From: a virus
Lineage: Duplodnaviria > Caudoviricetes
IMG/VR virus record: IMGVR_UViG_3300037424_000900
Location: 1 to 62,933 of that record
Reading direction: 5' to 3' (one strand)
Length of the DNA stretch: 62,933 bases
Shown here: piece by piece, positions 6,759 to 47,170 of the stretch
How the letters are laid out: each line of letters starts with the position of its first letter
Numbering within the stretch: position 1 is the stretch's first letter
The notes under the pieces: model-generated
Seen by the model: only the letters and a program-made list of their open reading frames with translations
The model's database searches: none
Told to the model about the DNA's origin: nothing
Position numbers and translations under genes: made by a program

Positions 6759-7153
6759 TGTTTTATTTTTACTCGGTTACGAATGACATTAATTATATTC
6801 TTGGCATTACGTTCTATGGCTTTTTGAAAGAATTTTGGACCTGAATTTGGTCGATTCCAATTCACTTTTTTATTCTTAGAAGCTAACAATTCATGCACAA
6901 ATACTGCATAATTAGCTGTAAATCCAATTACCAATCCAATCAAACCTAATCTTTTTATTGGGGATGTTGTCCAAGATGCTCTTAAGTTTCCAGTATCTAT
7001 AGGAATCAAAGGGGGAGTTTTATCCATGTCCCTACGTATTATTATGGCTGCATCAATCAATCCAGCCATACTTCGTCCTTGAATATTCCTAATTTCTTTA
7101 TTAAGATTACTCACTACTTTGGACAATCCTTTTATTTCATTCCTCTTAGCCAT
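6755..7153 (-). CDS. HK97 gp10-like neck protein
   Basis: Basic protein with PIDTGNLRAS, ANYAVFVHE and PKFFQKA motifs. Confidence 0.8.
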   Translation of the reverse strand: MAKRNEIKGLSKVVSNLNKEIRNIQGRSMAGLIDAAIIIRRDMDKTPPLIPIDTGNLRASWTTSPIKRLGLIGLVIGFTANYAVFVHELLASKNKKVNWNRPNSGPKFFQKAIERNAKNIINVIRNRVKIKQ

Positions 7154-7527
7154 TACAAATATGCCTTTCTTACAAATTTTGAAGTGGATCGAAATAATGG
7201 AACTTTTTCAAAAGCTTTAATTTCATACGCCCCATCAACTTCTTTTGGATCACCAATCTGAGCACTATTTAAATCATCCAAAATACCTAAATATACCCAC
7301 CCTTGTTCTTGTACATCCTGAGTTACTAACAATTGAGCTTTAGAAACCACCACTTTTCCCGTGGCTGTTGTTCCTTTGTCCCCTATTAACTCCACTTTAC
7401 TATCCCATCGGCAAGCTATTTCTACAGCGGCGTCAAATATAGTTCCTCCGTGACCATCTGGTCTTGGATTCCCCCAATACACAGCAGTCTGAACACAAAC
7501 TTTTTCTATGAATTGAATTATTCCCAT
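7153..7527 (-). CDS. Head-tail adaptor / head-closure protein
   Basis: QTAVYWGNP-x-PDGHGG motif; size and position in the neck module. Confidence 0.7.
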   Translation of the reverse strand: MGIIQFIEKVCVQTAVYWGNPRPDGHGGTIFDAAVEIACRWDSKVELIGDKGTTATGKVVVSKAQLLVTQDVQEQGWVYLGILDDLNSAQIGDPKEVDGAYEIKAFEKVPLFRSTSKFVRKAYL

Positions 7528-7880
7528 TACTCAATTGCCGTTATAGTAGCATTTTTTAATCCCAATGTTGCTAACTTCCCTGTGGTATCCAATATTTTTA
7601 CCATTTGACCAAATTGGGAAGCATCTAAACCCATCCCCGTTTTACCTACATATTCCACTTTAGCTCCTCCAGCCTCTTCTTTTGCTGATAGACGTGCCGC
7701 TCCACAAGCTAATAAATGAGCTGCTAAATACCTTTCAATTTCCTTTAATATTGCTGTAGTACCTGTTCCAAGGGCTTCATCTACCATAGCAGTTGCCCCA
7801 GCAATAGCAACTTCAACTTTAGTGTCATCCACATCAGTTTCCAATAATCCGTTTACATCATCAACTGTTACTCGTGCCAT
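7527..7880 (-). CDS. Head-tail connector protein
   Basis: Start moved to ATG 7880 (MARVTVDDV, AAGGAG upstream); IERYLAAHLL and SQFGQMVKILD motifs. Confidence 0.75.
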   Translation of the reverse strand: MARVTVDDVNGLLETDVDDTKVEVAIAGATAMVDEALGTGTTAILKEIERYLAAHLLACGAARLSAKEEAGGAKVEYVGKTGMGLDASQFGQMVKILDTTGKLATLGLKNATITAIE

Positions 7881-28071: not shown

Positions 28072-29684
28072 AACCCAGTTACATATACCCAAGATTAATG
28101 GTTAAAACAGCTAAAATAACGGATATTAATGGAGTACCCGTTATTTTAATTAAATTCCCGTTCAGTAATTCTACATTGTCACAAATACGTACTATCCCAG
28201 GCCGGGAATATCATTCTGAAATAAAATCATGGTCTTGTCCTATAAATTCTAAAAATGTTCAATTACTTACTTCCTTTGGGTTTAATATGGACAAAGAATT
28301 GTTAACATATAATCAAAAGAACACTTTAAAAATACCAGTCATAAATGGGTTACTTGGAGAATTAAAAAACTATCAAAAATTAGTAATCCCTTTTATTGAT
28401 TCTTGTAATGGTAGAGCTATAATTGGAGATGATATGGGTTTGGGTAAAACAATTGAAGCCATATCATATTTACAATATTATAGAAATGAAAGGCCTGCCA
28501 TAATTGTAACTGCCGCTTCATTGAAAGATAATTGGAGGTCAGAAATCAAGAAATGGATGCCTTATCCAAAAATTCAAATGGTACAAGGAGAAAAATACTT
28601 TGACTTAGAAGGGGATATTTTAATCATAAATTATGATATTCTTGATTTCTGGTTAGATTACTTAATTAAAATAAACCCCAAAATATTAATTACAGATGAA
28701 AGCCAATACTTTAAAAGCCGTACAGCAATAAGATCAAATTGCATTAAAGTATTATCATCTGTAACCCCTAAATTTATACAATTATCAGGAACCCTTTTAG
28801 AAAACAGACCTGTTGAAATATATAACTCTTGGAAATTTGCTGACCCTTTGAATTGTCCTCCATTTGTTATTTATGGAGAAAGATATTGTGGTGGAAAAGA
28901 ACGTGATTATAAAGGGGCTACTAACTTGGAAGAACTCCATTTTAATTTGAAAAAAATAATGATACGCAGATTAAAATCTGAAGTTGCTCCCGAATTACCT
29001 AAACGTACAATTCAAATGGTTCCTTTAGAAATTGATAACAGGAAGGAATATGATGAAGCTCAAAACGATTTCGTACAATACATGAAAAAGTTCAAAGGGG
29101 ACTACGATACCATGAAAGCATCGTCAATGTTTATATTCTCCAAGATTGAAATATTAAAACAATTAACAGCCAAAGGAAAGCAAAAAATGGTGTTGGATTG
29201 GGTGAAGGTATTCCTATCAACCGGGAATAAATTGGTAATTTTCGTTACTTATTTGGAATCTATCAACTACTTGTATAGAGCATTTGAAAAACAATCAGTA
29301 TATATGAATGGTTCTGTTCCAAGTAATAAAAGACAAGGATTGGTTGATCAATTCCAAAATGACCCAAAAACTCAGTTATTCATTGGCATGTTAGATAAAC
29401 AAGCGAAACCAGCTGGAGTAGGTTGGAATCTAACCGCCGCATCATGTACTGCTACAGTAGAATTTCAATGGACACCGGGGGTACATGAACAAGCAGATGC
29501 TAGAGTACATCGATTAACAACTATTTATCCAGTAACAAATTATTATTTACCTGCTATTAATACTATTGATGAACGAATAATGTCAGTTATTGATAGAAAG
29601 ACAAAGATTGTTAATAAAGTCCTTGATAATAAAGACATTTATGATGATATATTAACTAATTTACTTTTAAATTACAAATTATGA
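28068..29684 (+). CDS. SNF2-family helicase with N-terminal HARP-like domain
   Basis: GDDMGLGKT, ITDESQ, LSGT..ENRP, AGVGWNLTAA, EQADARVHR; N-terminal KFPF...IRTIPGREY...W. Confidence 0.9.
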   Translation: MKPSYIYPRLMVKTAKITDINGVPVILIKFPFSNSTLSQIRTIPGREYHSEIKSWSCPINSKNVQLLTSFGFNMDKELLTYNQKNTLKIPVINGLLGELKNYQKLVIPFIDSCNGRAIIGDDMGLGKTIEAISYLQYYRNERPAIIVTAASLKDNWRSEIKKWMPYPKIQMVQGEKYFDLEGDILIINYDILDFWLDYLIKINPKILITDESQYFKSRTAIRSNCIKVLSSVTPKFIQLSGTLLENRPVEIYNSWKFADPLNCPPFVIYGERYCGGKERDYKGATNLEELHFNLKKIMIRRLKSEVAPELPKRTIQMVPLEIDNRKEYDEAQNDFVQYMKKFKGDYDTMKASSMFIFSKIEILKQLTAKGKQKMVLDWVKVFLSTGNKLVIFVTYLESINYLYRAFEKQSVYMNGSVPSNKRQGLVDQFQNDPKTQLFIGMLDKQAKPAGVGWNLTAASCTATVEFQWTPGVHEQADARVHRLTTIYPVTNYYLPAINTIDERIMSVIDRKTKIVNKVLDNKDIYDDILTNLLLNYKL

Positions 29685-30385
29685 AAACAATTTATTTATT
29701 AGAAAATTACACATGGAAAAGTTTTGAATTTAATGAATTACAAGAAATTCAAACAGAACTTGAAAAAAGAAGAATATATTTTAATTATGAAGCCAAGATA
29801 GGTGATAGAGCCAAGATAGGTTATGAAGCCGAGATAGGTTATGGAACCGAGATAGGTGATGGAGCCGAGATAGGTGATGGAGCCAAGATAGGTTATGGAG
29901 CCAAGATAGGTGATGGAGCCAAGATAGGTTATGGAGCCAAGATAGGTTATGGAGCCAAGATAGGTGATGGAACCGAGATAGGTTATGAAGCCGAGATAGG
30001 TGATAAAGCCGAGATAGGTTATGGAGCCAAGATAGGTGATAGAGCTAAGATAGGTTATGGAGCCAAGATAGGTGATAGAGCTAAGATAGGCAATGAAGCC
30101 AAGATAGGTGATAGAGCTAAGATAGGCAATGAAGCCAAGATAGGTTATGGAGCCAAGATAATTAAATCTTTATTTATAACAGGCTCAAGACACTCACTAA
30201 ATTGGTATTCTAACAATGAAATAAATATAGGATGTTATAAACGCTCTATTGAATGGTGGTTAGAAAACGGAAATGAAGTTGCTGACAATGAAAACTATTC
30301 CACCAATGAAAAAGAAGAGTATAAACAATATATTATATTTTGTCAACAATTACAAAAAACAATTGAAGAACATGACAAAGAATAA
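29681..30385 (+). CDS. Hexapeptide-repeat (left-handed beta-helix) protein
   Basis: 21 consecutive G-[YDN]-x-[AT]-[KE]-I-type units; C-terminal INIGC...IEWW. Confidence 0.85.
   Translation: MKTIYLLENYTWKSFEFNELQEIQTELEKRRIYFNYEAKIGDRAKIGYEAEIGYGTEIGDGAEIGDGAKIGYGAKIGDGAKIGYGAKIGYGAKIGDGTEIGYEAEIGDKAEIGYGAKIGDRAKIGYGAKIGDRAKIGNEAKIGDRAKIGNEAKIGYGAKIIKSLFITGSRHSLNWYSNNEINIGCYKRSIEWWLENGNEVADNENYSTNEKEEYKQYIIFCQQLQKTIEEHDKE
29783..30160 (+). repeat. 18-bp coding tandem repeat, 21 copies (consensus ggt-[tg]at-gga-gcc-aag-ata)
   Basis: Directly visible; units differ at only a few positions. Confidence 0.92.
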
Positions 30386-37205: not shown

Positions 37206-38033
37206 ATGGACAAAAAACAATTTTCTGCTTACAAAGCAGCGTATCAAGAGCTAATCGATGCTCTCTTGTTAAAAGATGACAAAACTGATGAACCTATCAA
37301 AATTCCAAGAAACATTTCTGAAGATGGTTTGTTGTTAGGTTTGAATGAATCTATTGCACTTTTAAAACCAGAAGAAATTGAGACTGGTAAAGTTGATGAT
37401 GCAACTCTTACTGAAGAAACACTGGCGGTAATTGCTGAATTGTCTGATACAAAAAAGTCATCAAAAAAAGGAAATTCCAAACCACCAGTAAAAATGACCG
37501 TTGTTGAAAAAGAAGAAGAAGAAGAAAATAACGACGATGATGACGATGACGATAACCTTATGGATGATTTGATTGAAGCAGTAGAAGCCACTGAAAAAAT
37601 TGCTGATTTGAAAGATTTGGTAAAAACAAATGATACTTTCAAACCCTTACGCACCAAACTTGTAACTTTCAAAACTGCCGATACTTTGCGTGAAGCAATG
37701 TTGGATATTATTGATGGTTTAGAGAAAGTTGACAATGACGATGATAATGATAATAAACCATCAAAAACCCCTGATAAATCCGAAAAGAAGAACACCCCAA
37801 CCCCCCCGGCAAAGAAAGCAGAAAAAACGCCCCCTGCCCCCAAGAAAGAATCTATGAGCAGGATTGATGCGGTTGCTATTGCCCTTCGTGATCACAAACC
37901 GAAAACAGTTGCCAAATGGATTGAATGTGCCGATACAGTATTTGGCCGGGAAAATGAAAATGAAAGCCGAATGATGATTAAGTATGCTCAAAAGGTGCTG
38001 TCAAAATTTGACATTGATTTCCCAACAGAATAA
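37206..38033 (+). CDS. Highly acidic low-complexity protein
   Basis: Poly-E/D tracts and a Pro/Lys linker; followed by a terminator. Confidence 0.75.
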   Translation: MDKKQFSAYKAAYQELIDALLLKDDKTDEPIKIPRNISEDGLLLGLNESIALLKPEEIETGKVDDATLTEETLAVIAELSDTKKSSKKGNSKPPVKMTVVEKEEEEENNDDDDDDDNLMDDLIEAVEATEKIADLKDLVKTNDTFKPLRTKLVTFKTADTLREAMLDIIDGLEKVDNDDDNDNKPSKTPDKSEKKNTPTPPAKKAEKTPPAPKKESMSRIDAVAIALRDHKPKTVAKWIECADTVFGRENENESRMMIKYAQKVLSKFDIDFPTE

Positions 38034-38117: not shown

Positions 38118-39173
38118 ATGGAAAAATTATTAAAAAATAGTCTAAGTGTTAGAGGGGATTCAGTTTATTGTCCCCTCTGTTTTAGTTTAGACAGCTATGG
38201 TAATTGTTTGACAGATTGTCACCACTGCTATCTAAGGAATCTCAACCACGTTTGGGGAAAAGACTTAAAACCTGCTGATACAGATTTACTAGAGAAAAAA
38301 TTGCGGATAGGAATAGCGAACAAAAACCCAAAATCAACCATTTCTTTTTGCCTTAGTAACAAAAAAACTATAAGATGGGGGAATAAGACAGACCCTTTTC
38401 AGAACGCTGAAATAAAACACCGAATTGCCCCAAAGATATTTTCATTGTTTTATGAATATGATTGGTCTTTTGTTATCCAGACGAAACATACAGAAACAAT
38501 GATGCGTTATGAGAAATATATTATGAGTTGTAATAAAAAACAGTTAGTAACAATAATGCCTGAAATCTCTCCTGGCCTTGAACAAGATTGGGAAGTATTT
38601 GAAATGAAAAGAACAACAAATCCAATACAACGATTGGAACACGTAAAATACTTACAATCTAATGGAGTAAATATTGGAGTAAATGGTGAACCTTTTATTC
38701 CCGGTTATCATACAGAGAAAGACTTTGAGACTGCTTTGAAATTGTTAAAGCAATATAATATACAATCATACAATACTTATAATTTTCATTTTAATGCATT
38801 CGTCGCTAAACGTCTTCATTCAATTGGTATTGATATTGAAAAGATATGGTTTTACAATCAAGACAATGAATGGAAGAAGATACTTGTTAAATTGCTTGAT
38901 TTATCCAAAAAATATAATATTCGATTAGGTTGTCCAGACTTCGTTAATACTGGCCCAAATTGGGTAGAAAAAGCAAATACATGTTGTGGAATAAACGTTC
39001 CAAATCCTTGCACATTTAATTCCCATCGTTTTAAACAGTTAAAACAAAAAGGGTATTCAGATGAAGATATATTAAAAGAAACTTGGGATGGTTCTGCTGA
39101 TTATTTAATGGGTAAAGCGGTGTTACAAGGAACTACTAAAAAATTTTATACACTTAAAGATTCTGGATTATGA
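38118..39173 (+). CDS. Radical SAM enzyme 1 (spore-photoproduct-lyase-like family)
   Basis: CLTDCHHC (CX3CX2C), GNKTDPFQ, IQTK, EPFIPG, C-terminal CPD...TCCG; start moved to ATG 38118, past the terminator. Confidence 0.85.
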   Translation: MEKLLKNSLSVRGDSVYCPLCFSLDSYGNCLTDCHHCYLRNLNHVWGKDLKPADTDLLEKKLRIGIANKNPKSTISFCLSNKKTIRWGNKTDPFQNAEIKHRIAPKIFSLFYEYDWSFVIQTKHTETMMRYEKYIMSCNKKQLVTIMPEISPGLEQDWEVFEMKRTTNPIQRLEHVKYLQSNGVNIGVNGEPFIPGYHTEKDFETALKLLKQYNIQSYNTYNFHFNAFVAKRLHSIGIDIEKIWFYNQDNEWKKILVKLLDLSKKYNIRLGCPDFVNTGPNWVEKANTCCGINVPNPCTFNSHRFKQLKQKGYSDEDILKETWDGSADYLMGKAVLQGTTKKFYTLKDSGL

Positions 39174-39991
39174 CAACCCCTATTGAAAAATATGATGGTA
39201 TTTATGTTAAACGAGAAGATTTGTGTTTTAAACCACCTGCTCCTCCATTTTCCAAATGTCGTGGAATAATAGAACATTTAAAAGAATTAAAATCTCAGGG
39301 AATAACAACTGTGGGATATGTTGAAACTTCCGTATCCATGGCCGGGTGGGGCTTAGCATGGGTTTGTGAGCAATTAGATATGACTGTTGTTATATTTGAT
39401 CCACAATATAAAGAAACTCCTGAAACTTTAAAATACCATAGAGAACAATGGAGAACCCATAAATCACATGTTATCATAGAGCCTATTAAAGCAGGAATGG
39501 CTAAGGTTAATTGGTATATATGTAAGAAAATATTAGAAAAATATTCGAATTCCATATTATTACCATTAGGATTGCCATTTGAAGAGACAATTAGTCAAAC
39601 GGCTTTGGAATTAACAAATATAGATATTAATCGTTATAAATTTAAATCTATTGTGGTTTGTGTGGGTAGTGGAACTATATGTGCTGGTATATTAAAAGGA
39701 GTAGATAAAAGACAATATTCAATCGATATTTATGGAGTAATGACAAGAAAAGGAGACAAGGATGCAAAACGTTCAAAAATAATAGATAAAGCAGGAATAT
39801 TTGGGTATGGTTTATTTAAAAACAATTGGGAATTATCTATTTTTGATGAAGGTTGGGAATATGCTCAAAAGTCTAATATACCAGTACCATTTCCTTGTCA
39901 TACTTATTATGATGCTAAAGCATGGGAGTTTCTTATGAAACATAGAAAACGAATTCCAGAACCCATTTTATTTTGGAATATCGGACATTAA
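39170..39991 (+). CDS. PLP-dependent fold-type II enzyme (D-cysteine desulfhydrase/ACC deaminase-like)
   Basis: YVKREDL...SKCRG (PLP lysine), VCVGSGTICAG, YDAKAW, LFWNIG. Confidence 0.85.
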   Translation: MTTPIEKYDGIYVKREDLCFKPPAPPFSKCRGIIEHLKELKSQGITTVGYVETSVSMAGWGLAWVCEQLDMTVVIFDPQYKETPETLKYHREQWRTHKSHVIIEPIKAGMAKVNWYICKKILEKYSNSILLPLGLPFEETISQTALELTNIDINRYKFKSIVVCVGSGTICAGILKGVDKRQYSIDIYGVMTRKGDKDAKRSKIIDKAGIFGYGLFKNNWELSIFDEGWEYAQKSNIPVPFPCHTYYDAKAWEFLMKHRKRIPEPILFWNIGH

Positions 39992-39998
39992 AAATATG

Positions 39999-40010
39999 AA
40001 TTGTATAATA
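39999..40010 (+). promoter_or_regulatory. AATTGTATAATA motif
   Basis: Intergenic, 16 nt before radical SAM 2. Confidence 0.6.
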
Positions 40011-40026
40011 TATTTAAACACAAAGT

Positions 40027-41442
40027 ATGAATAAACTCACATATTGGGATGTAAGAAAAGCAGTAATCAGGATTATACCAAGAATGACCCAATTAAGTCA
40101 TTCTAAACGCAAAGCAGAAGCTGTTCAGGAGAAAGGGCGTAAAAAGAATTACAGCCAATTCAACTTACGTCATAAAGAATGGCGTAAACAGGAACGGTTA
40201 CTAAACACTGAAGAAATTAACTCTTTTTTAGAAATATCCATACGGGCTGCAGCTTGTCCAATGCCTTTTAATATGGATATTTGGGATGGTTTAATTTGTC
40301 CATATGCTTGTGTATATTGTTATGCTAATGCTTTTAGAGCTTCATTATATACAGCATTCTTTGATAATAGTAAGACCATGGGATTTAGGCATTGTAATCC
40401 TACCTATTACAAGCAAGAGATGGATAAAATGGAGAAATTCAGAGTTATGTCATTTAAAGAAAAACAAAATTTACAAGGTATTAACAAAGCATTTGCATTA
40501 GGCATTCCCGTTCGTATGGGTATTCGTTTTGAAGATTTCTTACGTAATGAAGGAAAAGAAGGGGTCAGCCTAGAAATGTTAAAGTATTTGAAAGAAATAG
40601 AATATCCAGTTATGATTAATAGTAAATCAGCATTGGCTGGAAATGAAGAATATGTACGAGCCTTAGCAGATAATCCAGCAGGGGGAGCAATTCACATTAC
40701 TGCAATAACATCTAATGAAGAAATAACAAAAGCATTGGAACCTGGGGCACCAGCATATGCAGAACGGTTAAGAGCCATTAAAATATTAGTTGATTCCGGG
40801 GTTCGTGTAGTAGCCAGAATTGAACCATATTTATTCCTTGTTAATGATAATCCAGACGAGATTAAACAATATATGGAAGATATGTGGGGGGCAGGAGTAA
40901 GAAATATTACATTTGATACATATTCATACACTGCTCAAAATCCCGGTATTAGACAAAGTTTTATAAACAAGGGTTATGACTTTGACCGTATATTTCTTGC
41001 AGGATGTGATAGTCAGCCATTAGGTTCTTTACTACTTGGTAAATTTATGGAACTATTTCGTGAATATGGTTTTTCATGTTCAACATTCGATATGGGAAAT
41101 GCCCCAACAAATGATCAAGCTATCTGTTGTGAGGTTGGGGATTGGTTTACCGGGGAATTTAATTATGGGTGTACCGTAATGGCAGCCCGGTTTATATTTA
41201 ATAACAAAGGAACCAAAGTATCATGGAAAGAATTTGAGAAGTGGGTGGATTCTCATGGAGGATTCTTGACAGATGTTTTAAAACAAGAAGTTAAAGAGCT
41301 TTGGAACCTTGGAGGGAATCTAGCATATAGTCATCGTTGGGCTGCTGGTTTAACTCCTTGTGGACGGGATGAAGATGGAATACTTTGGATTTATGAAGAC
41401 AAGCAAGATTATAGAATTAACATATTAAATGAATTATTATGA
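40027..41442 (+). CDS. Radical SAM enzyme 2 (SPL-like family)
   Basis: CPYACVYC, INSKS, LEPGAP...RL, VARIEP, C-terminal AICCE. Confidence 0.87.
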   Translation: MNKLTYWDVRKAVIRIIPRMTQLSHSKRKAEAVQEKGRKKNYSQFNLRHKEWRKQERLLNTEEINSFLEISIRAAACPMPFNMDIWDGLICPYACVYCYANAFRASLYTAFFDNSKTMGFRHCNPTYYKQEMDKMEKFRVMSFKEKQNLQGINKAFALGIPVRMGIRFEDFLRNEGKEGVSLEMLKYLKEIEYPVMINSKSALAGNEEYVRALADNPAGGAIHITAITSNEEITKALEPGAPAYAERLRAIKILVDSGVRVVARIEPYLFLVNDNPDEIKQYMEDMWGAGVRNITFDTYSYTAQNPGIRQSFINKGYDFDRIFLAGCDSQPLGSLLLGKFMELFREYGFSCSTFDMGNAPTNDQAICCEVGDWFTGEFNYGCTVMAARFIFNNKGTKVSWKEFEKWVDSHGGFLTDVLKQEVKELWNLGGNLAYSHRWAAGLTPCGRDEDGILWIYEDKQDYRINILNELL

Positions 41443-42203
41443 AAATATCCAACTTAGTAGAACAAATTTTTGCTACAGCAGTAGCATTAGACCAATCAGG
41501 TGGTCTACGTAATACCATATATGCTTTGAATAATGAAGTATATATAATGAATTATGACCATACAGTATTACTCCGCTTTAGATTGCGACGCAGTGAAGGA
41601 TTCTTTGATCATCCAATTTCTTTTAAGGCTAATGATTACGACAGTAATGAGTTTGAAGAAAAAGACGGGAGAATTGTATTTTATAGTGGTAATGATGGCT
41701 ATAAAAAGAAGAAAGTTTGTGGAACAACCGATTTAACCCCGGAACAAGTAAAGGAGTTATTTTCTGAGTATATTCAAGAAGATTCCCAAGCTCAATCTTA
41801 TCTTTTATCCAAAGACATTCTTGAATTAATGGATGACTCTCTAAGTCATGTGGAATTTATTGGGGATAAAAAGAATCCATTAAAAATGATTCAACGTAAC
41901 ATATACAGCGGTGGAATAATAGAGATTGAAAAAAAGTCAGATGGTTTCTTTAAGGAAACTTTAATCAATGATTTTGGTCCAGTAGCTATTAAGACACAGG
42001 ATTTTCAAGCATTGTTTCAATTTCAGAATCAATTGAAGTTTTCTTTTCCAACGAACGGACAAGAAGACTTGATAGTAATTCGAAGTGTAAACAATGATAA
42101 ACGAGATATGGCAGGAATAATAGCCTGTTGTCTTTATGATGAAATAATTAAAATTAAGGAGGTTGAACATGGGGGGCAAAAGCAGAAAGTCAGGAGGGGT
42201 TAG
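41439..42203 (+). CDS. Unknown protein, possibly a degenerate sliding-clamp fold
   Basis: 254 aa; IMNYDHTVLLRFRL is reminiscent of the PCNA AMDxSHVxLVxL strand; weak resemblance. Confidence 0.4.
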   Translation: MKISNLVEQIFATAVALDQSGGLRNTIYALNNEVYIMNYDHTVLLRFRLRRSEGFFDHPISFKANDYDSNEFEEKDGRIVFYSGNDGYKKKKVCGTTDLTPEQVKELFSEYIQEDSQAQSYLLSKDILELMDDSLSHVEFIGDKKNPLKMIQRNIYSGGIIEIEKKSDGFFKETLINDFGPVAIKTQDFQALFQFQNQLKFSFPTNGQEDLIVIRSVNNDKRDMAGIIACCLYDEIIKIKEVEHGGQKQKVRRG

Positions 42204-42321
42204 CAAGAAGCTAATTGCTCAAATTAAGTCAGGACAATTAAACACTAAAACATCATCCTGTGGTAAAAAGAACACAACAGAGGAACTCAAAAAAGATGGA
42301 TTTAAGCCTTTATTTGATTAG
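42169..42321 (+). CDS. 50-aa basic Gly/Ser/Lys peptide MGGKSRKSGGVSKK...GFKPLFD
   Basis: AAGGAGG 6 nt before ATG 42169; bridges the two flanking genes; below track cutoff. Confidence 0.6.
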   Translation: MGGKSRKSGGVSKKLIAQIKSGQLNTKTSSCGKKNTTEELKKDGFKPLFD

Positions 42322-43084
42322 GGCTTATGAATTACAAGTAGTTCCTAATTTCTTCATGTCTTTACCATCTTTAGAATTATATGATGTAAAGGTAAAATTG
42401 GACAATGATTGGGTATGGTTGGAAGAAAATCATAAATGTATTCTTCCACCTTTACCAATTAAATCTGGATTTACAATGGATACATATCCAAAGATTGATT
42501 CTGTTTGGGCATGTTTCGAAAAGGGGAATTGGAGAATGCCTACAAATCACCAACAAACCTTTTTGGATTACCAATACATATTTGATATGAATAATTTCCA
42601 AGACCTGAGTGGAGGAAAATGGGAATCTTTCAGAAAGAATATAAGAAAATGGCCAAAAAATAATTCCGGGTATTCATACAGTCGAATCAAACCAAGTGCA
42701 AAGAAAGCTGGAAAATTAATTGGATGTTGGTTAGAAGATCATGAAAAGGATGTTCAAGATGCTGTTCATTTAAGTGAATTTGTTTATTTTTATAACAATT
42801 CACAAATACATCGAAAATTTTTGTACAATAAATATAATGAATTAGTGGGTATTAATGCTTGGGATGAGAACTATTTTTATATTAATTATCGATATTGTAT
42901 TATCAAAGACATCCCATATTTAGATGAATTTATGCGTTGGTTATTCTATACTGATGATGATGTTTTTAAATGTGATAAATTAATCAATGATGGAGGCTGT
43001 TTAGATAGCCCCGGACTTGAAAAATTCAAAGATAAATTAAACCCAATACGCAAAGTGCCTATTTATACATGGACTAAAATTTAA
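42296..43084 (+). CDS. DUF2156 / MprF-C-like (Fem/GNAT fold) aminoacyl-tRNA-dependent transferase
   Basis: DYQYIF...DLSGGKWESFRKNIRKW and INDGG.LDSPGLEKFKDKLNP match the DUF2156 pattern (L.G.K....RN.IN; IN...DLG..GL...K....P); no TM domain. Confidence 0.7.
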   Translation: MDLSLYLIRAYELQVVPNFFMSLPSLELYDVKVKLDNDWVWLEENHKCILPPLPIKSGFTMDTYPKIDSVWACFEKGNWRMPTNHQQTFLDYQYIFDMNNFQDLSGGKWESFRKNIRKWPKNNSGYSYSRIKPSAKKAGKLIGCWLEDHEKDVQDAVHLSEFVYFYNNSQIHRKFLYNKYNELVGINAWDENYFYINYRYCIIKDIPYLDEFMRWLFYTDDDVFKCDKLINDGGCLDSPGLEKFKDKLNPIRKVPIYTWTKI

Positions 43085-43088
43085 TATT

Positions 43089-44093
43089 ATGAAAATAAAT
43101 CGTAAAGAACTACAAACAGCCTTGGAAATAGTTAAACCGGGATTGGCTAACCGAGAAGTAATTGAACAAGCAAATTCATTTGCTTTTATGGATGATCGTT
43201 TGGTCACTTACAATGATGAAATTAGTATATCTCACCCAATATCTGGATTAGAGATAACTGGAGCAGTAAAAGCAGATGAGCTTTACAAATTCATAAACAA
43301 GGTAAAAAAAGACGAATTGGAGTTTGAATTAACTGATAATGAAATAGTATTAATATCAGGGCGTTCGAAAGCTGGATTTGCTATTCAATCTGAAATAAAA
43401 TTACCTATAAAGGACATTGGAAACATTGGTAAATGGAAAGCTTTGCCTGATGATTTTATGAGTAAAATATCATTTGTGTCTTCTTCAGCTGGAAAGACTA
43501 TGAGCAAACCAATACTTGCTTGTGTACATGTTAATAAGGAAGGTTTTGTTGAAGCGTCGGATGGTTTTAGAATTACAAAGAATATGTTAAGTGATACAAT
43601 GCCAGTTAAAACATTTCTAATTCCTGCCACTTCAGTATCTCAAATAATTCGTCTAAAACCAACTAAAATAGCAGAGGGACAAGGCTGGATACACTTTAAA
43701 ACATAATCTGAAACTACAATATCCTGTAGAATATTTGAAGATGACAAGTTTCCCGAAACATCTAATTTCTTTAAAGTAGATGGGGATTGTGTTGAATTCC
43801 CAAATACATTATTGGATATTATAGACAGGGCATTAATCTTTAGTAATACAGATTTAGTTGATATTTTGATAAAGAACAAAAGATTTAAAGTATCTAGTAA
43901 AAATGATACTGGCTGGTTTGAAGAAGAAGCAAACAGCAAATATGATGGAAATGAGATTCAATTTACAATGAATCCTAATTTACTGAAGGACATTTTATCA
44001 GTAACTAAAAATGCAATTATAGGGGATGATAAATTGAAATTTGAGGGAGAAGATTGGGTATTTGTAACAGTACTTCAAAACAAACAACAATGA
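43089..44093 (+). pseudogene. dnaN: DNA polymerase III beta sliding clamp with one in-frame TAA at 43704-43706
   Basis: Track ORFs 43089-43706 and 43812-44093 share a frame; the read-through is HFKT*SETTISCRIFEDDKFP; LACVHV...EASDGFRI and MNPNLLKDIL are clamp motifs. Confidence 0.8.
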
Positions 44094-44254: not shown

Positions 44255-45501
44255 CAGGATTTTTTTCAAATAAACAAGTAGAAAGTATTACCCGTCCAAA
44301 CGGTAAGGTGTATTCATGCTCATCTTGCGGGCTTCATTTACACGTTAACACTCCAAGAATGAAACCATATGGTAATTTTTCGAAAGGAATTATAATTGTT
44401 GGAGAAGCACCGGGGGAAATAGAAGATTCAAAAGGAAAGCCATGGCAAGGCAAAACGGGGCGTTTACTTCAACATACTCTACGTGACTTTGGAATTGATT
44501 TATTTGAAGATTGTTTGAGTATACATGCTTGTCATTGTAAACCTATGGATGAAAAAGGGAATAATAGAAACCCATCCAATTTTGAAATTGAATCCTGTCG
44601 TAAAACTACACTATCTTATATTAAACAATACAAACCAAAAATAGTAATATTGCTTGGAAATGCTGCTATTTATAGCATTATAGGACATCGTTGGAAGAAA
44701 GACTTGGGAAATATTTCTAAATGGAGAGGGTGGACAATTCCCGATCGTGATTTTAATTGTTGGGTTTGTCCCACTTTTCATCCAAGTTATATAGAACGGT
44801 CTGAAGATGATGTAGCAAAAATTGTTTGGAAGAAAGATTTAGAATTAATATTATCTTTATTAAACAAGCCTTTCCCAGAGTATAAAGAACCCATTATTGA
44901 TATAATTACTGATTTATCTGTTTTATATGACAAGAAAATGGGAACAAATAAGATATTTGCTGCCCCCCATATAGCAATAGATTACGAAACTACTGGTATT
45001 AAACCCCATTCGATTGGACATCGTATTGTTTGTGTATCAATAGCTGATAATGAAGACCATGCATATGTATTTATGTTACCTACTACAAGAATGGAAAGAA
45101 AGCCTTTTGTTGATTTATTAGCAAATAAAGATATTTTCAAAATGGCCCATAATATGAAATTTGAGGAAACTTGGTCTGTTGTTAGATTACAACAATCTGT
45201 TATAAGTTGGGCATGGGATTCTATGCAAGCTGCTCATATATTAGACAATAGAAGATACATAACAGGCTTAAAATTTCAAGTATATGTTAATTTTGGAATT
45301 GTCGATTATGACAGTGATATTTCTCCTTATTTGAAATCAAAGGATGAAGAAGCCAACAGTTTAAATCGAATTCATGAATTAATAAATATACCCGGTGGAA
45401 AAGAAAAACTAATGCATTACTGTGGATTAGATTCTGTTTTTACTTATCGATTAGCAATGATACAAAAACCATTAATAATTAATAACTATGAAAGGAATTA
45501 A
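44251..45501 (+). CDS. Family-4 uracil-DNA glycosylase fused to 3'-5' exonuclease (N-terminal part of an SPO1-type DNA polymerase)
   Basis: CSSCGL, VGEAPG..ED..G.PWQG..G, TFHPSY; exonuclease AIDYETTG, AHNMKFE, DSM, YCGLD. Confidence 0.9.
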   Translation: MTGFFSNKQVESITRPNGKVYSCSSCGLHLHVNTPRMKPYGNFSKGIIIVGEAPGEIEDSKGKPWQGKTGRLLQHTLRDFGIDLFEDCLSIHACHCKPMDEKGNNRNPSNFEIESCRKTTLSYIKQYKPKIVILLGNAAIYSIIGHRWKKDLGNISKWRGWTIPDRDFNCWVCPTFHPSYIERSEDDVAKIVWKKDLELILSLLNKPFPEYKEPIIDIITDLSVLYDKKMGTNKIFAAPHIAIDYETTGIKPHSIGHRIVCVSIADNEDHAYVFMLPTTRMERKPFVDLLANKDIFKMAHNMKFEETWSVVRLQQSVISWAWDSMQAAHILDNRRYITGLKFQVYVNFGIVDYDSDISPYLKSKDEEANSLNRIHELINIPGGKEKLMHYCGLDSVFTYRLAMIQKPLIINNYERN

Positions 45502-45853
45502 GAATTATTTACATTATACCATGTTAATAGAGGATGATCATTCAAAATGGAAAGAAACTATATCTGAAGTAGTTGAGGATATGACAGAACTACAACATGC
45601 TAAATTATTAATAAATAAATTTAATAATAGTTTAAAACTAGGTGAACTTCCGAGAAGGTTAAAATTATTACGTGTTCACAAAGAAGTAGGTAAATTTAGA
45701 CATGATTGGATTAAGAAAAGTCTTGTTACGGAAAAGGGAGGATATGACATTTATATATGCTCTAATTGTAAAGCTACTGGAAAAAGACATGGTTTATCAT
45801 CTACAATAGTGCCTGATATGGAATATGAACAATTTTGTAAAACTAAATTATAA
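45488..45853 (+). CDS. Hypothetical protein with His/Cys zinc motif
   Basis: HDWIKKSLVT...YD...CSNCKATGKR. Confidence 0.65.
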   Translation: MKGIKNYLHYTMLIEDDHSKWKETISEVVEDMTELQHAKLLINKFNNSLKLGELPRRLKLLRVHKEVGKFRHDWIKKSLVTEKGGYDIYICSNCKATGKRHGLSSTIVPDMEYEQFCKTKL

Positions 45854-45979
45854 AGCTATGACAGAAATTGAACAATTAACAATTGCAGCAGCTTGTATAG
45901 GTGCTAAAATTGATCGACGATTAAGATTAAATGATCCAGAATTATTGTAACGCTTAAATATTAACGAAAACTTAAAGTT

Positions 45980-47170
45980 ATGAAGAGACTGATGTTAATT
46001 GTGTTATTAGCTGCTTTGTACTTAATAAAGTTACAAGCTCCAATTGATGTAATAACACCAGAGAATAATTACAGGAAAACTGTAAATAATGTTTACGAGA
46101 ATTTGGAATTATATACATTTTTAGATTCATTAGCAATTCCAGAATCAGGAAACATCGATCATTATCCAATAATATATAAAGGTAAGAAGGTGGAAAGTCC
46201 TTATCATATTGTTAATGGGATTGGGGCAGCTGGTAGATGGCAAATGATGCCTTGTGCTAGAAGAGATGTAGGGTATAAAGGAACATTAAAAGAATTCCTT
46301 TCCTCTCCAGATATTCAAAGGAAATGTATTATAAAATTCATGAAGAAGAATAAAAAATATATGGATTATTACATTCCAAATTACAGGGATTACATAGGAA
46401 AGGAAATAATCACCCATAGAAAAGTTTTTACAAAAAGAATTATCCAAGGAAAGGATACGATTTATAAAAAATGTATAATTCGGGCAGATACTGCTGTTAT
46501 CACTTTTTCTGGATTGATTGGAACTATGCATTTAACAGGGGTGGGGGGTTTAAAAAGATTATTGTATAATAAAATTAACTCTACAGATGGGAATGCTACT
46601 GCAATGCAATACATGAAAAGGTTTAAAGATTTTAAAATTAGTAATATGTTAAATTCGGAAGATATAGAAAAGAGAGTATTAATGGTGTATGAAGAAAATG
46701 ATATTAATGAAGAAATAACTCACAAAAATCTTTGTTTAATAGCTGCAAAATATTTAAAAAATCAAGGAATACATCCATTTCATAGATGTAAATATGTTGT
46801 TTGTGAATTAGAGCGGGAGGGAGAAAGCCCCGATGCTTTTGGATGGGGGGGAACATCTACTCAGCTGATTGAAGTCAAAATTTCTCGGTCAGATTTTTTG
46901 TCTGATAAAAATAAAAGGTGGAGAAAATTACCAGAAATAGGACTTGCTGCCTGGCGTAGTTATTTATGCCCTAAAAACATTATAAAACCTAAAGATTTGC
47001 CGAATAATTGGGGTTTATTATATTTTGATAAAGGAAAAGTTGAAATTATAAAAAGTCCATCTTATCAAGATCATAATAAATCAGAAGAACTTCATTTGGT
47101 AACCAATATAATGAGAAGAGAAGGCATAAAATCTCAAATATTTAGTTACAAACAATACAAAGTTGTATGA
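45980..47170 (+). CDS. Lysozyme-like domain (signal peptide) in frame with an MmcB-like PD-(D/E)xK nuclease domain
   Basis: N-terminal hydrophobic leader, IPESGN, GAAGRWQM, HLTGVGG; C-terminal CE...ESPDAFG...LIEVKISRSDFLSD...LP..WGLL. Confidence 0.65.
   Translation: MKRLMLIVLLAALYLIKLQAPIDVITPENNYRKTVNNVYENLELYTFLDSLAIPESGNIDHYPIIYKGKKVESPYHIVNGIGAAGRWQMMPCARRDVGYKGTLKEFLSSPDIQRKCIIKFMKKNKKYMDYYIPNYRDYIGKEIITHRKVFTKRIIQGKDTIYKKCIIRADTAVITFSGLIGTMHLTGVGGLKRLLYNKINSTDGNATAMQYMKRFKDFKISNMLNSEDIEKRVLMVYEENDINEEITHKNLCLIAAKYLKNQGIHPFHRCKYVVCELEREGESPDAFGWGGTSTQLIEVKISRSDFLSDKNKRWRKLPEIGLAAWRSYLCPKNIIKPKDLPNNWGLLYFDKGKVEIIKSPSYQDHNKSEELHLVTNIMRREGIKSQIFSYKQYKVV

Follow-up and report, generated by a model that had tools for sequence, protein, structure and literature searches.

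The six genes at 38118-43084 of the window (the whole 62,933-nt stretch of viral DNA that was analysed) on balance probably encode a 5hmU-independent hypermodification pathway for the phage's own DNA, by a route so far undescribed. We favor this reading because the PLP enzyme and two radical SAM enzymes (RS1 and RS2) are related to gp52 and gp53 of phage M6, because the block is co-inherited, with a variable tailoring slot, inside the replication module by the clamp gene, and because the genes for entry into the 5hmU route are missing from the 20 records searched. The phage comes from sediment and is uncultured, and the analysis of the block covers its genes, their homologies and their co-occurrence.

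In the mechanism that we propose, the cassette (RS1, a tailoring gene, RS2, u254, p52 and t274) would modify phage DNA after replication, and a canonical base would receive an amino-acid-derived group with no need for a 5-hydroxymethyl-pyrimidine intermediate. RS1 and RS2 would carry out radical steps on DNA, which might activate a base position, rearrange an amino acid already attached (the role of M6 gp53), or both. t274 would provide the amino acid, with aminoacyl-tRNA as the most plausible source, in the manner of MprF, FemX and Mom, and u254 and p52 would be obligatory accessories in DNA or clamp tethering or in a carrier role. The slot gene would then tailor the adduct: the M6 gp52-type PLP decarboxylase of this phage would give an amine, and the MTase-like protein, aldo/keto reductase, FAD oxidoreductase or amidoligase of its relatives would give other end products. 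The modified base might act against restriction.

Table 1. Features of the block and its immediate neighbours in the window.
Feature	Coordinates	Strand	Matches and remarks
275-aa ORF upstream of RS1	37206..38033	+	no family, poor conservation
RS1, radical SAM, PA0069/Rv2578c (COG1533, SPL-related) kind, 351 aa	38118..39173	+	NCBIfam, phrog_13321
Fold-type II PLP enzyme, M6 gp52-type homologue	39170..39991	+	PF00291 39.5 bits (cut-off 35); phrog_7093 E 7.9e-46
RS2, second radical SAM, paralogue of RS1	40027..41442	+	PF04055 30.2 bits (cut-off 29.5)
u254, conserved 254-aa protein, core member	41439..42203	+	found in 35/35 (RS2-anchored) and 59/60 (t274-anchored) loci
p52, 50-aa basic peptide, core member	42169..42321	+	AAGGAGG RBS upstream
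t274, soluble DUF2156/LPG_synthase_C-like protein, candidate aminoacyl transferase, core member	42296..43084	+	PF09924 in relatives
DnaN-type sliding clamp	43089..44093	+	phrog_947 E 3.4e-21; TIGR00663 E 1.7e-4

All six genes are present on the + strand in the order given by the initial annotation, namely RS1, PLP enzyme, RS2, u254, p52 and t274 (Table 1). From RS1 to the clamp gene, which begins 4 nt past the end of the block, neighbouring genes overlap or sit 4-35 nt apart. The clamp is followed by a UDG plus 3'-5' exonuclease and by PolA, and the block lies inside the replication module. The succession of t274 and clamp was found in 34/35 loci anchored on RS2 and in 69/74 loci anchored on t274. 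We regard the clamp as genomic context, and its membership in the pathway is only putative. The clamp gene of this record carries an in-frame TAA at 43704-43706; the clamps of relatives are intact (332-350 aa). The 275-aa ORF upstream of RS1 had no match in Pfam, PHROG or NCBIfam, was matched in part at no more than 8 of 41 loci, and is probably outside the unit. The same arm also codes for RecA, an SbcCD-like ATPase and nuclease, and a protein with a weak UvsY match. No tRNA genes were found in the window, which is a point against the reading that we favor.

The block is a conserved, co-inherited unit. RS1 was present in 31/31 and t274 in 35/35 of the loci anchored on RS2, and among 60 related viral loci anchored on t274, RS2 was found in 59, RS1 in 58 and the p52 motif in 56 (for u254, see Table 1). 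The co-occurrence in gene neighbourhoods suggested as a check in the initial annotation was therefore seen for RS1, RS2, u254, p52 and t274 but not for the PLP enzyme, which occurred in 14/31 and 29/60 loci, respectively, and is a variable (tailoring) member outside the conserved core. At one locus (L116), t274 was present and the RS genes, u254 and p52 were all missing. A TET-associated glycosyltransferase was detected there (E 5.4e-40), which we count as a link since it represents another family of DNA-hypermodification enzymes.

The PLP enzyme is the strongest link to DNA hypermodification, and its absence from about half of the loci counts against the reading that we favor. It aligned over its full length with PAE1 Orf44 (35% identity, E 8.5e-49) and was 33.5% identical to the phage phi_M6 homologue; K29 in the motif PPFSKxRG corresponds in the alignment to K36 of PAE1, and the enzyme retains the GSGT loop. 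In the description of M6 gp52 in PMC8989533, K36 is the named lysine and the glycine-thymine adduct in DNA is decarboxylated by gp52. The kinship with M6 gp52 is borne out by full-length homology at 33-35% identity with the catalytic Lys retained, and judged by sequence the enzyme is a member of the gp52 family, decarboxylases of DNA-bound amino acids. Both cultured-phage lineages tested that have this PLP family (PAE1 and RHph_I65) also have ADDT and HMUDK. In the relatives, the slot between RS1 and RS2 is occupied by the PLP gene or by another enzyme gene: an MTase-like family (PDB 3ntv, E 0.0015; one member weakly a D12 N6-A MTase), an aldo/keto reductase (E 1e-40), a DAO-type FAD oxidoreductase, Amidoligase_2 or an N6/N4 DNA methylase. 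The same kind of combinatorial tailoring is described for thymidine hypermodification clusters in the NAR 2021 paper.

RS1 and RS2 matched each other in hhalign with a probability of 98.7%. Both are, by profile comparison, remote homologues of the M6 gp53-type radical SAM enzyme (RS1 against PAE1 Orf46, 96.4%, E 1.4e-9; RS2 against the M6 gp53-type enzyme, 86%, E 4.7e-6). RS1 starts at the ATG at 38118, the one that homologues use, and contains the CX3CX2C motif as C52x3C56x2C59 (residue numbers from the longer 38052 ORF). Its invariant Cys (alignment A4) are C40, C52, C56, C59, C294, C311 and C312, four of them beyond the motif; the set of RS2 (alignment A5) is C91x3C95x2C98 plus C77, C123, C351, C367 and C368. 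RS1 had no match in Pfam and matched the PA0069 (E 3.6e-14) and Rv2578c (E 5.3e-9) families of NCBIfam, the latter of which was also matched by RS2 (E 1.2e-12). The solved SPL was not matched in single-sequence or profile searches. RS2 is the best-conserved protein of the region (50-82% identity over 41 loci). In some relatives RS2 is broken by inteins (Hint/intein domains) or a homing endonuclease gene, and split N-terminal fragments occur. PA0069 and Rv2578c are SOS/LexA-linked genes (table row, PMC3381160; bioRxiv 10.1101/2022.03.14.484287). Since the relatives of RS1 and RS2 are the M6 gp53-type enzyme and these SOS/LexA-linked families, their characterised or contextualised kin all point to DNA.

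The repair association of the cellular kin also fits a repair role and in this respect counts against hypermodification. RS1 and RS2 would then be SPL/PA0069-type repair enzymes that undo or process a lesion in phage DNA, such as UV or radical damage, and the genes around them would supply accessory factors for repair or replication within a large phage repair set (RecA, SbcCD-like, UvsY-like). The nearest named families, the presence of this set in the same arm and the adjoining clamp and polymerase are consistent with such a role. However, the scores against the cellular families are far under the cut-offs (52.5 vs 360 bits; 47.6 vs 430 bits), the two paralogues are retained together in 58/60 loci, and repair gives no account of the gp52-type decarboxylase, t274, p52 or the changing slot gene (reductase, oxidoreductase, amidoligase or MTase-like). 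We consider a repair function improbable.

The t274 copy of the window scored below the Pfam cut-off for PF09924 (16 vs 27.5 bits), while 11/26 family members matched PF09924 in a central segment at E<=0.01 (best 1.3e-6). All 110 relatives in the database are short and phage-like, and 16 of them carry PF09924. The family profile matched the DUF2156 structure PDB 2hqy (E 0.0029). A GTG at 42260 could serve as another start, and the database gene call has 262 aa (P0016). The PF09924 and 2hqy matches weakly assign t274 to the tRNA-dependent DUF2156/MprF-C branch of the acyltransferase fold, and we infer its use of aminoacyl-tRNA from family membership only; the low score of the window copy counts against the favored reading. 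Mom gives a precedent for such a donor to DNA: the use of Gly-tRNA on DNA adenine by Mom, mentioned in the initial annotation, is in print, where Mu Mom is classed as a GNAT enzyme and its reaction is given as the transfer of the glycine of Gly-tRNA(Gly) onto N6 of adenine in dsDNA (PMC13219725).

It is also conceivable, but in our view improbable, that the block acts on tRNA or other RNA, the pre-replication nucleotide pool, or a host molecule (an envelope lipid or peptidoglycan precursor, the targets of DUF2156 and Fem relatives), with a role in host takeover or superinfection exclusion and not in DNA marking. The chemistry of RNA and cofactors often involves radical SAM together with PLP enzymes, and none of the core proteins showed a recognisable domain for DNA binding or base flipping, which also counts against hypermodification of DNA. 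The DUF2156-domain relatives that have been characterised (MprF) attach amino acids to lipids (Pfam entry; PMC13219725). On the other hand, the PLP and radical SAM kin are DNA-acting enzymes, the linkage to replication genes is fixed, and no thymidylate-synthase-like nucleotide-level enzyme was found. In addition, and as weak evidence, no membrane domain could be recognised in t274, nor was the protein found in any longer, fused form.

Of the two remaining core members, u254 matched a Pfam family in 0/22 members and had no relative among solved structures; out of 1.84 billion, 218 representatives matched it at E<=0.001. The label "clamp-like" for u254 is a candidate one that draws only on two weak leads, an ESM feature match (0.91) to a cluster in which 33% of the members carry DNA_pol3_beta and an hhalign probability of 18% against the phage's own clamp. 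The peptide p52 has a nearly invariant N-terminus (G2, G3, K4, S5, R6, K7, G9, S12 and L15 are invariant in 27 distinct aligned sequences), a variable Lys-rich middle and a hydrophobic plus acidic tail.

The main rival to DNA as substrate, which we regard as unlikely, is p52 itself, the product being either a peptide that bears the modification or a small molecule made on a carrier peptide. The invariant N-terminus would be a leader-like recognition or acceptor region, t274 would act like FemX or L/F-transferase and aminoacylate p52 on a Lys side chain or at the N-terminal amine, after which p52 or the amino acid carried on it would be changed by the radical SAM and tailoring enzymes. The near-universal occurrence of p52 (motif in 56/60 loci), its leader-like N-terminus and one fusion fit this possibility and count against a DNA substrate. 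The first ~20 residues outdo the flanking proteins in conservation (83% vs 47-48% in L004), the C-terminal part varies in the manner of leader/core peptides, and the overlap of the p52 frame with both u254 and t274 suggests translational coupling. In the database protein P0261, p52 is fused to the C-terminus of an unrelated CX3CX2C radical SAM-like domain. Auxiliary clusters occur in peptide-modifying radical SAM enzymes, and the four extra invariant Cys common to RS1 and RS2 could hold one. However, neither RS1 nor RS2 matched SPASM or another peptide-maturase family, their kin are DNA-linked, and the fusion is a single protein on one contig. Many p52 variants lack Cys, and the C-terminal part has no conserved residue. 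Moreover, in nearly all loci the block lies in the replication module by the clamp, genes resembling DNA methylases fill the variable slot, and the characterised relatives of the PLP enzyme act on DNA adducts (PMC8989533).

For DNA hypermodification, independence from 5hmU is suggested by the searches for the entry genes. The PF00303 hydroxymethylase, PF18724 amino acid:DNA transferase and PF18723 5-hmdU DNA kinase were found in 0/20 records (the window and 19 relatives, three of which are at least 90% complete), and the same searches detected the positive controls in phage PAE1. Tet/JBP was also not found in the 20 records, in a search without a positive control. The initial statement on the hydroxymethylase, the kinase and aGPT-Pplase, that none of them can be recognised, thus holds in the window and the 19 relatives. 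Its premise that the window contains the whole early/middle arm fails, as CheckV puts the record at 85% complete; the standard 5hmU genes, which might have lain in the missing segment, were not found even in near-complete relatives.

Carrier or scaffold peptides serve biosynthesis in LysW-type amino-group carrier systems and in 'pearlin' peptide aminoacyl-tRNA ligase systems. Like these, the block has a small conserved peptide inside an enzyme cluster with a putative tRNA-dependent transferase, and many p52 variants end in acidic residues; however, p52 and the block have no known homology to those carriers or ligases. RS1 and RS2 share with SPL, PA0069 and Rv2578c (COG1533) the CX3CX2C near the N-terminus and have partial profile matches to the latter two, but they differ in scores under the family cut-offs, in the extra Cys set and in long C-terminal regions. 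Cellular PA0069/Rv2578c members are DNA-damage regulated (PMC3381160; bioRxiv 10.1101/2022.03.14.484287), whereas the neighbourhood of RS1 and RS2 is biosynthetic. t274 resembles the MprF C-terminal domain/DUF2156 and Fem-type transferases in its central-segment and 2hqy matches; unlike them, it is soluble, about 262 aa long, free of a membrane domain and confined to phage-like contigs, and its window copy is under the Pfam cut-off. Mom offers the precedent of a charged tRNA as amino-acid donor to DNA by an enzyme of the acyltransferase fold, to which t274 weakly belongs, but Mom acts alone, without radical SAM and PLP steps, whereas the block keeps five core genes together. In the M6/Yuavirus 5-NedU pathway, as outlined in PMC8989533, a dUMP hydroxymethylase, a 5-hmdU DNA kinase, the amino acid:DNA transferase gp51, the radical SAM isomerase gp53 and the PLP decarboxylase gp52 take part. 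Unlike M6, the 20 records searched lack the entry genes and Tet/JBP, the core adds u254, p52 and the DUF2156-like t274, the PLP enzyme is optional, and a pair of radical SAM paralogues, which share four additional invariant Cys, stands in place of one enzyme. As in M6, the genes are clustered near replication genes, with a clear full-length PLP homologue and two remote gp53-type homologues, and, like thymidine hypermodification clusters, relatives of the block have combinatorial tailoring with an FAD oxidoreductase and an amidoligase.

Two radical SAM enzymes (RS1 and RS2), a fold-type II PLP enzyme encoded between them, a 254-aa protein (u254), a 50-aa basic peptide (p52) and a DUF2156/LPG_synthase_C-like candidate transferase (t274) are encoded by six consecutive genes, each confirmed at the position given in the initial annotation. 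The intergenic gaps from RS1 to the DnaN-type clamp gene downstream are only -4, 35, -4, -35, -26 and 4 nt, and the genes therefore form a single tightly packed unit that ends at the clamp gene. The window is the complete IMG/VR record, linear and 62,933 bp long, with a CheckV estimate of 85% completeness. Structural genes occupy the minus strand to about 26.6 kb, and the plus strand carries the early/replication arm, which starts at 27.3 kb and extends to the record end. The arm encodes an SNF2 helicase, a hexapeptide transferase, a sigma factor, a primase, a DnaB-like ATPase, the block, the clamp, a UDG with a 3'-5' exonuclease, PolA, a clamp loader, RecA, SbcCD-like genes and a DnaA-C HTH protein. 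A promoter and terminator scan gave nothing above shuffled expectation, and no tRNA genes were found in the window.

Genes of the block in the window and the basis of their assignment
Gene	Position	Strand	Remark
RS1	38118-39173	+	start at ATG 38118, from homologues
PLP enzyme	39170-39991	+	PF00291 passed
RS2	40027-41442	+	PF04055, 30.2 bits against a cut-off of 29.5
u254	41439-42203	+	no family
p52	42169-42321	+	conserved peptide motif
t274	42296-43084	+	PF09924 below cut-off in the window copy

The block from RS1 to t274 is a co-inherited unit. A scan anchored on RS2 recovered 41 viral loci, in which RS1 was counted where the locus reached 4 kb upstream and the other genes where it reached 3 kb downstream. 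RS1 was present in 31/31 such loci (four of them with a divergent paralogue), u254 and t274 in 35/35, and the clamp followed in 34. An independent scan with t274 as anchor recovered 80 loci, of which 48 lie on contigs outside the first set; among those extending 6.5 kb or more upstream (60 loci), RS2 and u254 were each found in 59, RS1 in 58 and the p52 motif in 56. The expected co-occurrence in relatives thus holds for the core genes. The PLP gene, which had been counted with the block, is present in the window but in only 14/31 and 29/60 of the loci of the two scans.

The position between RS1 and RS2 is variable. In relatives it is empty or holds the PLP gene, a methyltransferase-like gene, an aldo/keto reductase (E 1.2e-40), a DAO-type FAD oxidoreductase, an Amidoligase_2 gene (alongside PLP) or an N6/N4 DNA methylase. 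The methyltransferase-like family is Rossmann-type (232-255 aa); its profile matches PDB 3ntv (E 0.0015), and one member is weakly similar to D12 N6-adenine methyltransferases. Biosynthetic clusters are laid out in this way, with a constant core and an exchangeable tailoring gene, and these enzyme classes are listed around thymidine hypermodification genes in the available text of a NAR 2021 paper. As a separate observation, the hexapeptide-repeat acyltransferase of the early arm (29681-30385) has no counterpart in 19 related records; it could be an extra tailoring enzyme specific to the window, acting for example in amine acetylation, or it could be unrelated.

The PLP enzyme provides the closest tie to a characterized pathway. 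It finds 67 cultured-phage records, 66 of them full-length and most from Pseudomonas Yuavirus, including phi_M6 and the M6-type control phage PAE1. Identity is 35% to PAE1 Orf44 over the full length (E 8.5e-49) and 33.5% to phi_M6. Lys29 aligns with PAE1 Lys36, the Schiff-base lysine, and the GSGT phosphate loop is kept; Lys36 is the residue named for M6 gp52 in the available text of PMC8989533. The alignments thus identify the enzyme as a homologue in the M6 gp52/ViI gp226 decarboxylase family, with a predicted activity. According to the same part of that paper, the SPL-like radical SAM enzyme gp53 makes a glycine-thymine adduct in DNA by isomerization, which gp52 decarboxylates.

RS1 and RS2 belong to the radical SAM superfamily. 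The CX3CX2C motif is invariant in both (24 and 23 aligned sequences, respectively), RS2 reaches PF04055, and RS1 matches NCBIfam radical SAM families but no Pfam family. Both match phrog_13321, and hhalign identifies them as paralogues (98.7%). Against the gp53-type enzyme of PAE1, hhalign gave 96.4% for RS1 (E 1.4e-9) and 86% for RS2. Four further conserved cysteines are common to both (C40, C294, C311 and C312 in RS1; C77, C351, C367 and C368 in RS2) and may form a second metal site. No other protein of the region is as conserved as RS2, at 50-82% identity compared with 33-55% for PolA. Both RS1 and RS2 match the PA0069 and Rv2578c NCBIfam families, with scores far under cut-off (52.5 bits against 360 and 47.6 against 430), and neither single sequences nor profiles of RS1 and RS2 gave a usable PDB match, solved SPL included. 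Judged by these scores, PA0069, Rv2578c and SPL are related families of which RS1 and RS2 are not members. PA0069 and Rv2578c, the nearest cellular families, are SOS-linked according to the available parts of PMC3381160 and bioRxiv 10.1101/2022.03.14.484287; that the block itself serves DNA repair is, in our estimate, very improbable.

At or just after the CX3CX2C motif, RS2 is interrupted in six loci (L024, L026-L029 and L031) by Hint/intein domains or by a split into two ORFs, which flank a NUMOD3/DUF559 homing endonuclease gene. The RS1 position is taken in L015, L016, L021 and L032 by a divergent paralogue of 377-409 aa (23-26% identical), one of which has a weak Radical_SAM match.

The genes that start the standard 5hmU route were not recognized. 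Neither PF00303 (thymidylate-synthase-like dUMP hydroxymethylase), PF18723 (5-hmdU DNA kinase) nor PF18724 (amino acid:DNA transferase, aGPT-Pplase2) was found in any of 20 records, the window and 19 relatives, including a record of 75 kb that has terminal repeats and two more with completeness ratings of 90% or above. The same searches detected PF00303 in control genomes, the kinase in PAE1 (E 7.6e-57) and RHph_I65 (E 1.3e-44), and the transferase in PAE1 (E 2.4e-48) and RHph_I65 (E 1.5e-18). PAE1 carries transferase, kinase and a thymidylate-synthase-like gene, and Rhizobium phage RHph_I65, the most distant cultured carrier of the PLP family, has both transferase and kinase. PF12851 (Tet/JBP dioxygenase) was likewise absent from the 20 records, in a search without a positive control. 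The failure to recognize these genes in the window, noted in the initial annotation, was therefore borne out, and it is unlikely that a standard 5hmU route lies in the missing 15%. None of the three features of a 5hmU/5-PmdU thymidine hypermodification cluster of the M6, ViI and PaMx11 type was found in the window.

The last gene of the block, t274, scores 16 bits against PF09924 in its window copy, where the cut-off is 27.5. Of its relatives, 11/26 match PF09924 at E<=0.01 (best 1.3e-6), with only the central ~60 residues aligned; 16/110 database relatives carry the domain, and the family profile matches the DUF2156 structure PDB 2hqy (E 0.0029). Despite the sub-cut-off score of the window copy, these matches support a putative link to the DUF2156/PF09924 family. 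No longer forms of t274 were found, which is weak evidence. Aminoacyl-tRNA would be the donor of t274, by analogy with MprF, Fem and Mom, the phage Mu enzyme that uses Gly-tRNA on DNA adenine (available text of PMC13219725). It is also conceivable that the target of the block is RNA, nucleotides or the envelope, but we give this little credence.

One locus, L116, has a t274-like gene beside the clamp and none of RS1, RS2, u254 and p52. Here a TET-associated glycosyltransferase (PF20691, E 5.4e-40), which represents another DNA-hypermodification family, lies upstream of the DUF2156-like gene instead (L116:4710-5855 and 7022-7843). No PF00303 gene was found in its 60-kb record, nor was Tet/JBP in a search that had no positive control.

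Conservation argues that p52 is a genuine peptide and not a chance ORF. Its 27 distinct versions share a near-invariant start (G2 G3 K4 S5 R6 K7 G9 S12 L15) and a middle that is variable but rich in Lys, and their tail has a hydrophobic pair followed by acidic residues. This tail presumably resembles clamp-binding or SSB-tail motifs, and clamp binding is putative. The ESM Atlas gave no lead (best score 0.78). In P0261, a 341-aa protein on one 19-kb contig, p52 is fused C-terminally to a CX3CX2C protein of ~288 aa that is related to neither RS1 nor RS2; downstream in the locus L122 lies a relative of the CX3CX2C domain with 26% identity. Because of its conserved pattern and this fusion, p52 may be either an adaptor or tether of the enzymes or their substrate or carrier. 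Were p52 the true substrate, its leader-like and core-like pattern and its single fusion to a radical SAM-like protein would fit. Pfam and NCBIfam searches of RS1 and RS2 brought up neither an RRE nor a SPASM family. We regard p52 as the substrate as unlikely.

u254, described as clamp-like in the initial annotation, falls into no recognized family, and its resemblance to a clamp is tentative: an ESM feature lead scored 0.91 with 156 shared features, hhalign against the phage clamp gave 18%, and 0/22 members match the clamp Pfam families. Domain-wise hhalign against the clamp was uninformative, as the clamp's own domains fail to find each other, and PDB searches with sequences and profiles returned nothing usable. 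One homologue, P0150 (566 aa), has a 285-aa N-terminal extension, and further relatives carry N- or C-terminal extensions of 80-150 aa.

The clamp gene itself (43089-44093) contains an in-frame TAA at 43704-43706, after codon 205, beyond which the frame runs for 128 codons; the gene is intact in all 34 relatives listed, mostly at 332-368 aa. The TAA may reflect an error in sequencing or assembly, a pseudogene or readthrough. A recoded stop was rejected, since TAA is the commonest true stop (17/27 genes) and the other genes are clean under table 11. One sequencing run, a sediment metagenome that is possibly the source sample, holds the whole stretch, and its contig ends at 43407, before the TAA site. 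Two wetland runs hold only short diverged pieces, and there is no RNA run among the runs listed as holding the stretch. Further downstream, two ORFs of 121 and 396 aa (45488-47170) separate the UDG/exonuclease and PolA genes, which are adjacent in relatives. The 396-aa ORF matches phrog_631 and, in its C-terminal half, a 'DNA repair protein' PHROG; no copy of either ORF was seen in any of the 41 loci, and the pair appears to have been inserted into the polymerase region, splitting it.

The block family is not rare, with 41 and a further 48 viral contigs in the two scans. A search of 50,697 cultured-phage records did not find it: the block gave no match in distant blastn, and in tblastn RS1 and RS2 each had a single weak partial match and t274 had none. 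A genome scan returned only five MAG contigs (L044-L048), apparently of the same phage group, with RS2 49-74% identical. They are labeled Bacteroidota, Nitrospiraceae, Thioalkalivibrio, Bacillota and Melioribacteraceae; this spread across five phyla suggests binning artefacts, and no host can be deduced from it.

The best-supported explanation of the block, and one towards which we lean by a small degree, is a post-replicative DNA hypermodification cassette that bypasses 5hmU. What the analysis shows is homology, co-inheritance, a tailoring slot and missing genes; a DNA substrate, the base modified, aminoacyl-tRNA as donor, the sequence of steps and an anti-restriction role are inferred. If the block marks DNA, it would represent new radical chemistry on DNA, a second family of tRNA-dependent DNA-modifying enzymes and, for each tailoring variant, a new base. 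These bases would be of use both as marks that evade restriction and CRISPR and as enzyme tools.

In a literature search, no paper joined radical SAM, phage DNA modification and aminoacyl-tRNA; DUF2156 with phage returned only unrelated work, and related topics only the known M6 and Mom papers. The metavirome cluster catalogues in the supplements of PMC8989533 and PMC13219725 might show such contigs. The block would belong among phage DNA hypermodification clusters and, should the proposed entry chemistry be right, would represent a new route. Compared with M6, it keeps the late enzymes and lacks every early one, instead of which three conserved genes of unassigned function are present. To our knowledge, amino-acid-type DNA hypermodifications with a known pathway have only two starts: a hydroxymethyl-pyrimidine that is phosphorylated and then displaced (M6, ViI, SP10, phiW-14 and PaMx11), and the single GNAT enzyme Mom. 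We tentatively propose, as one joint reading about which we remain doubtful, a third entry route, in which the SPL-family radical SAM enzymes would directly functionalize a canonical base in replicated DNA, the DUF2156-type transferase would deliver an amino acid from aminoacyl-tRNA, p52 and u254 would organize the whole machine, possibly riding on the sliding clamp, and the swappable tailoring gene would lead to different final bases in different lineages.
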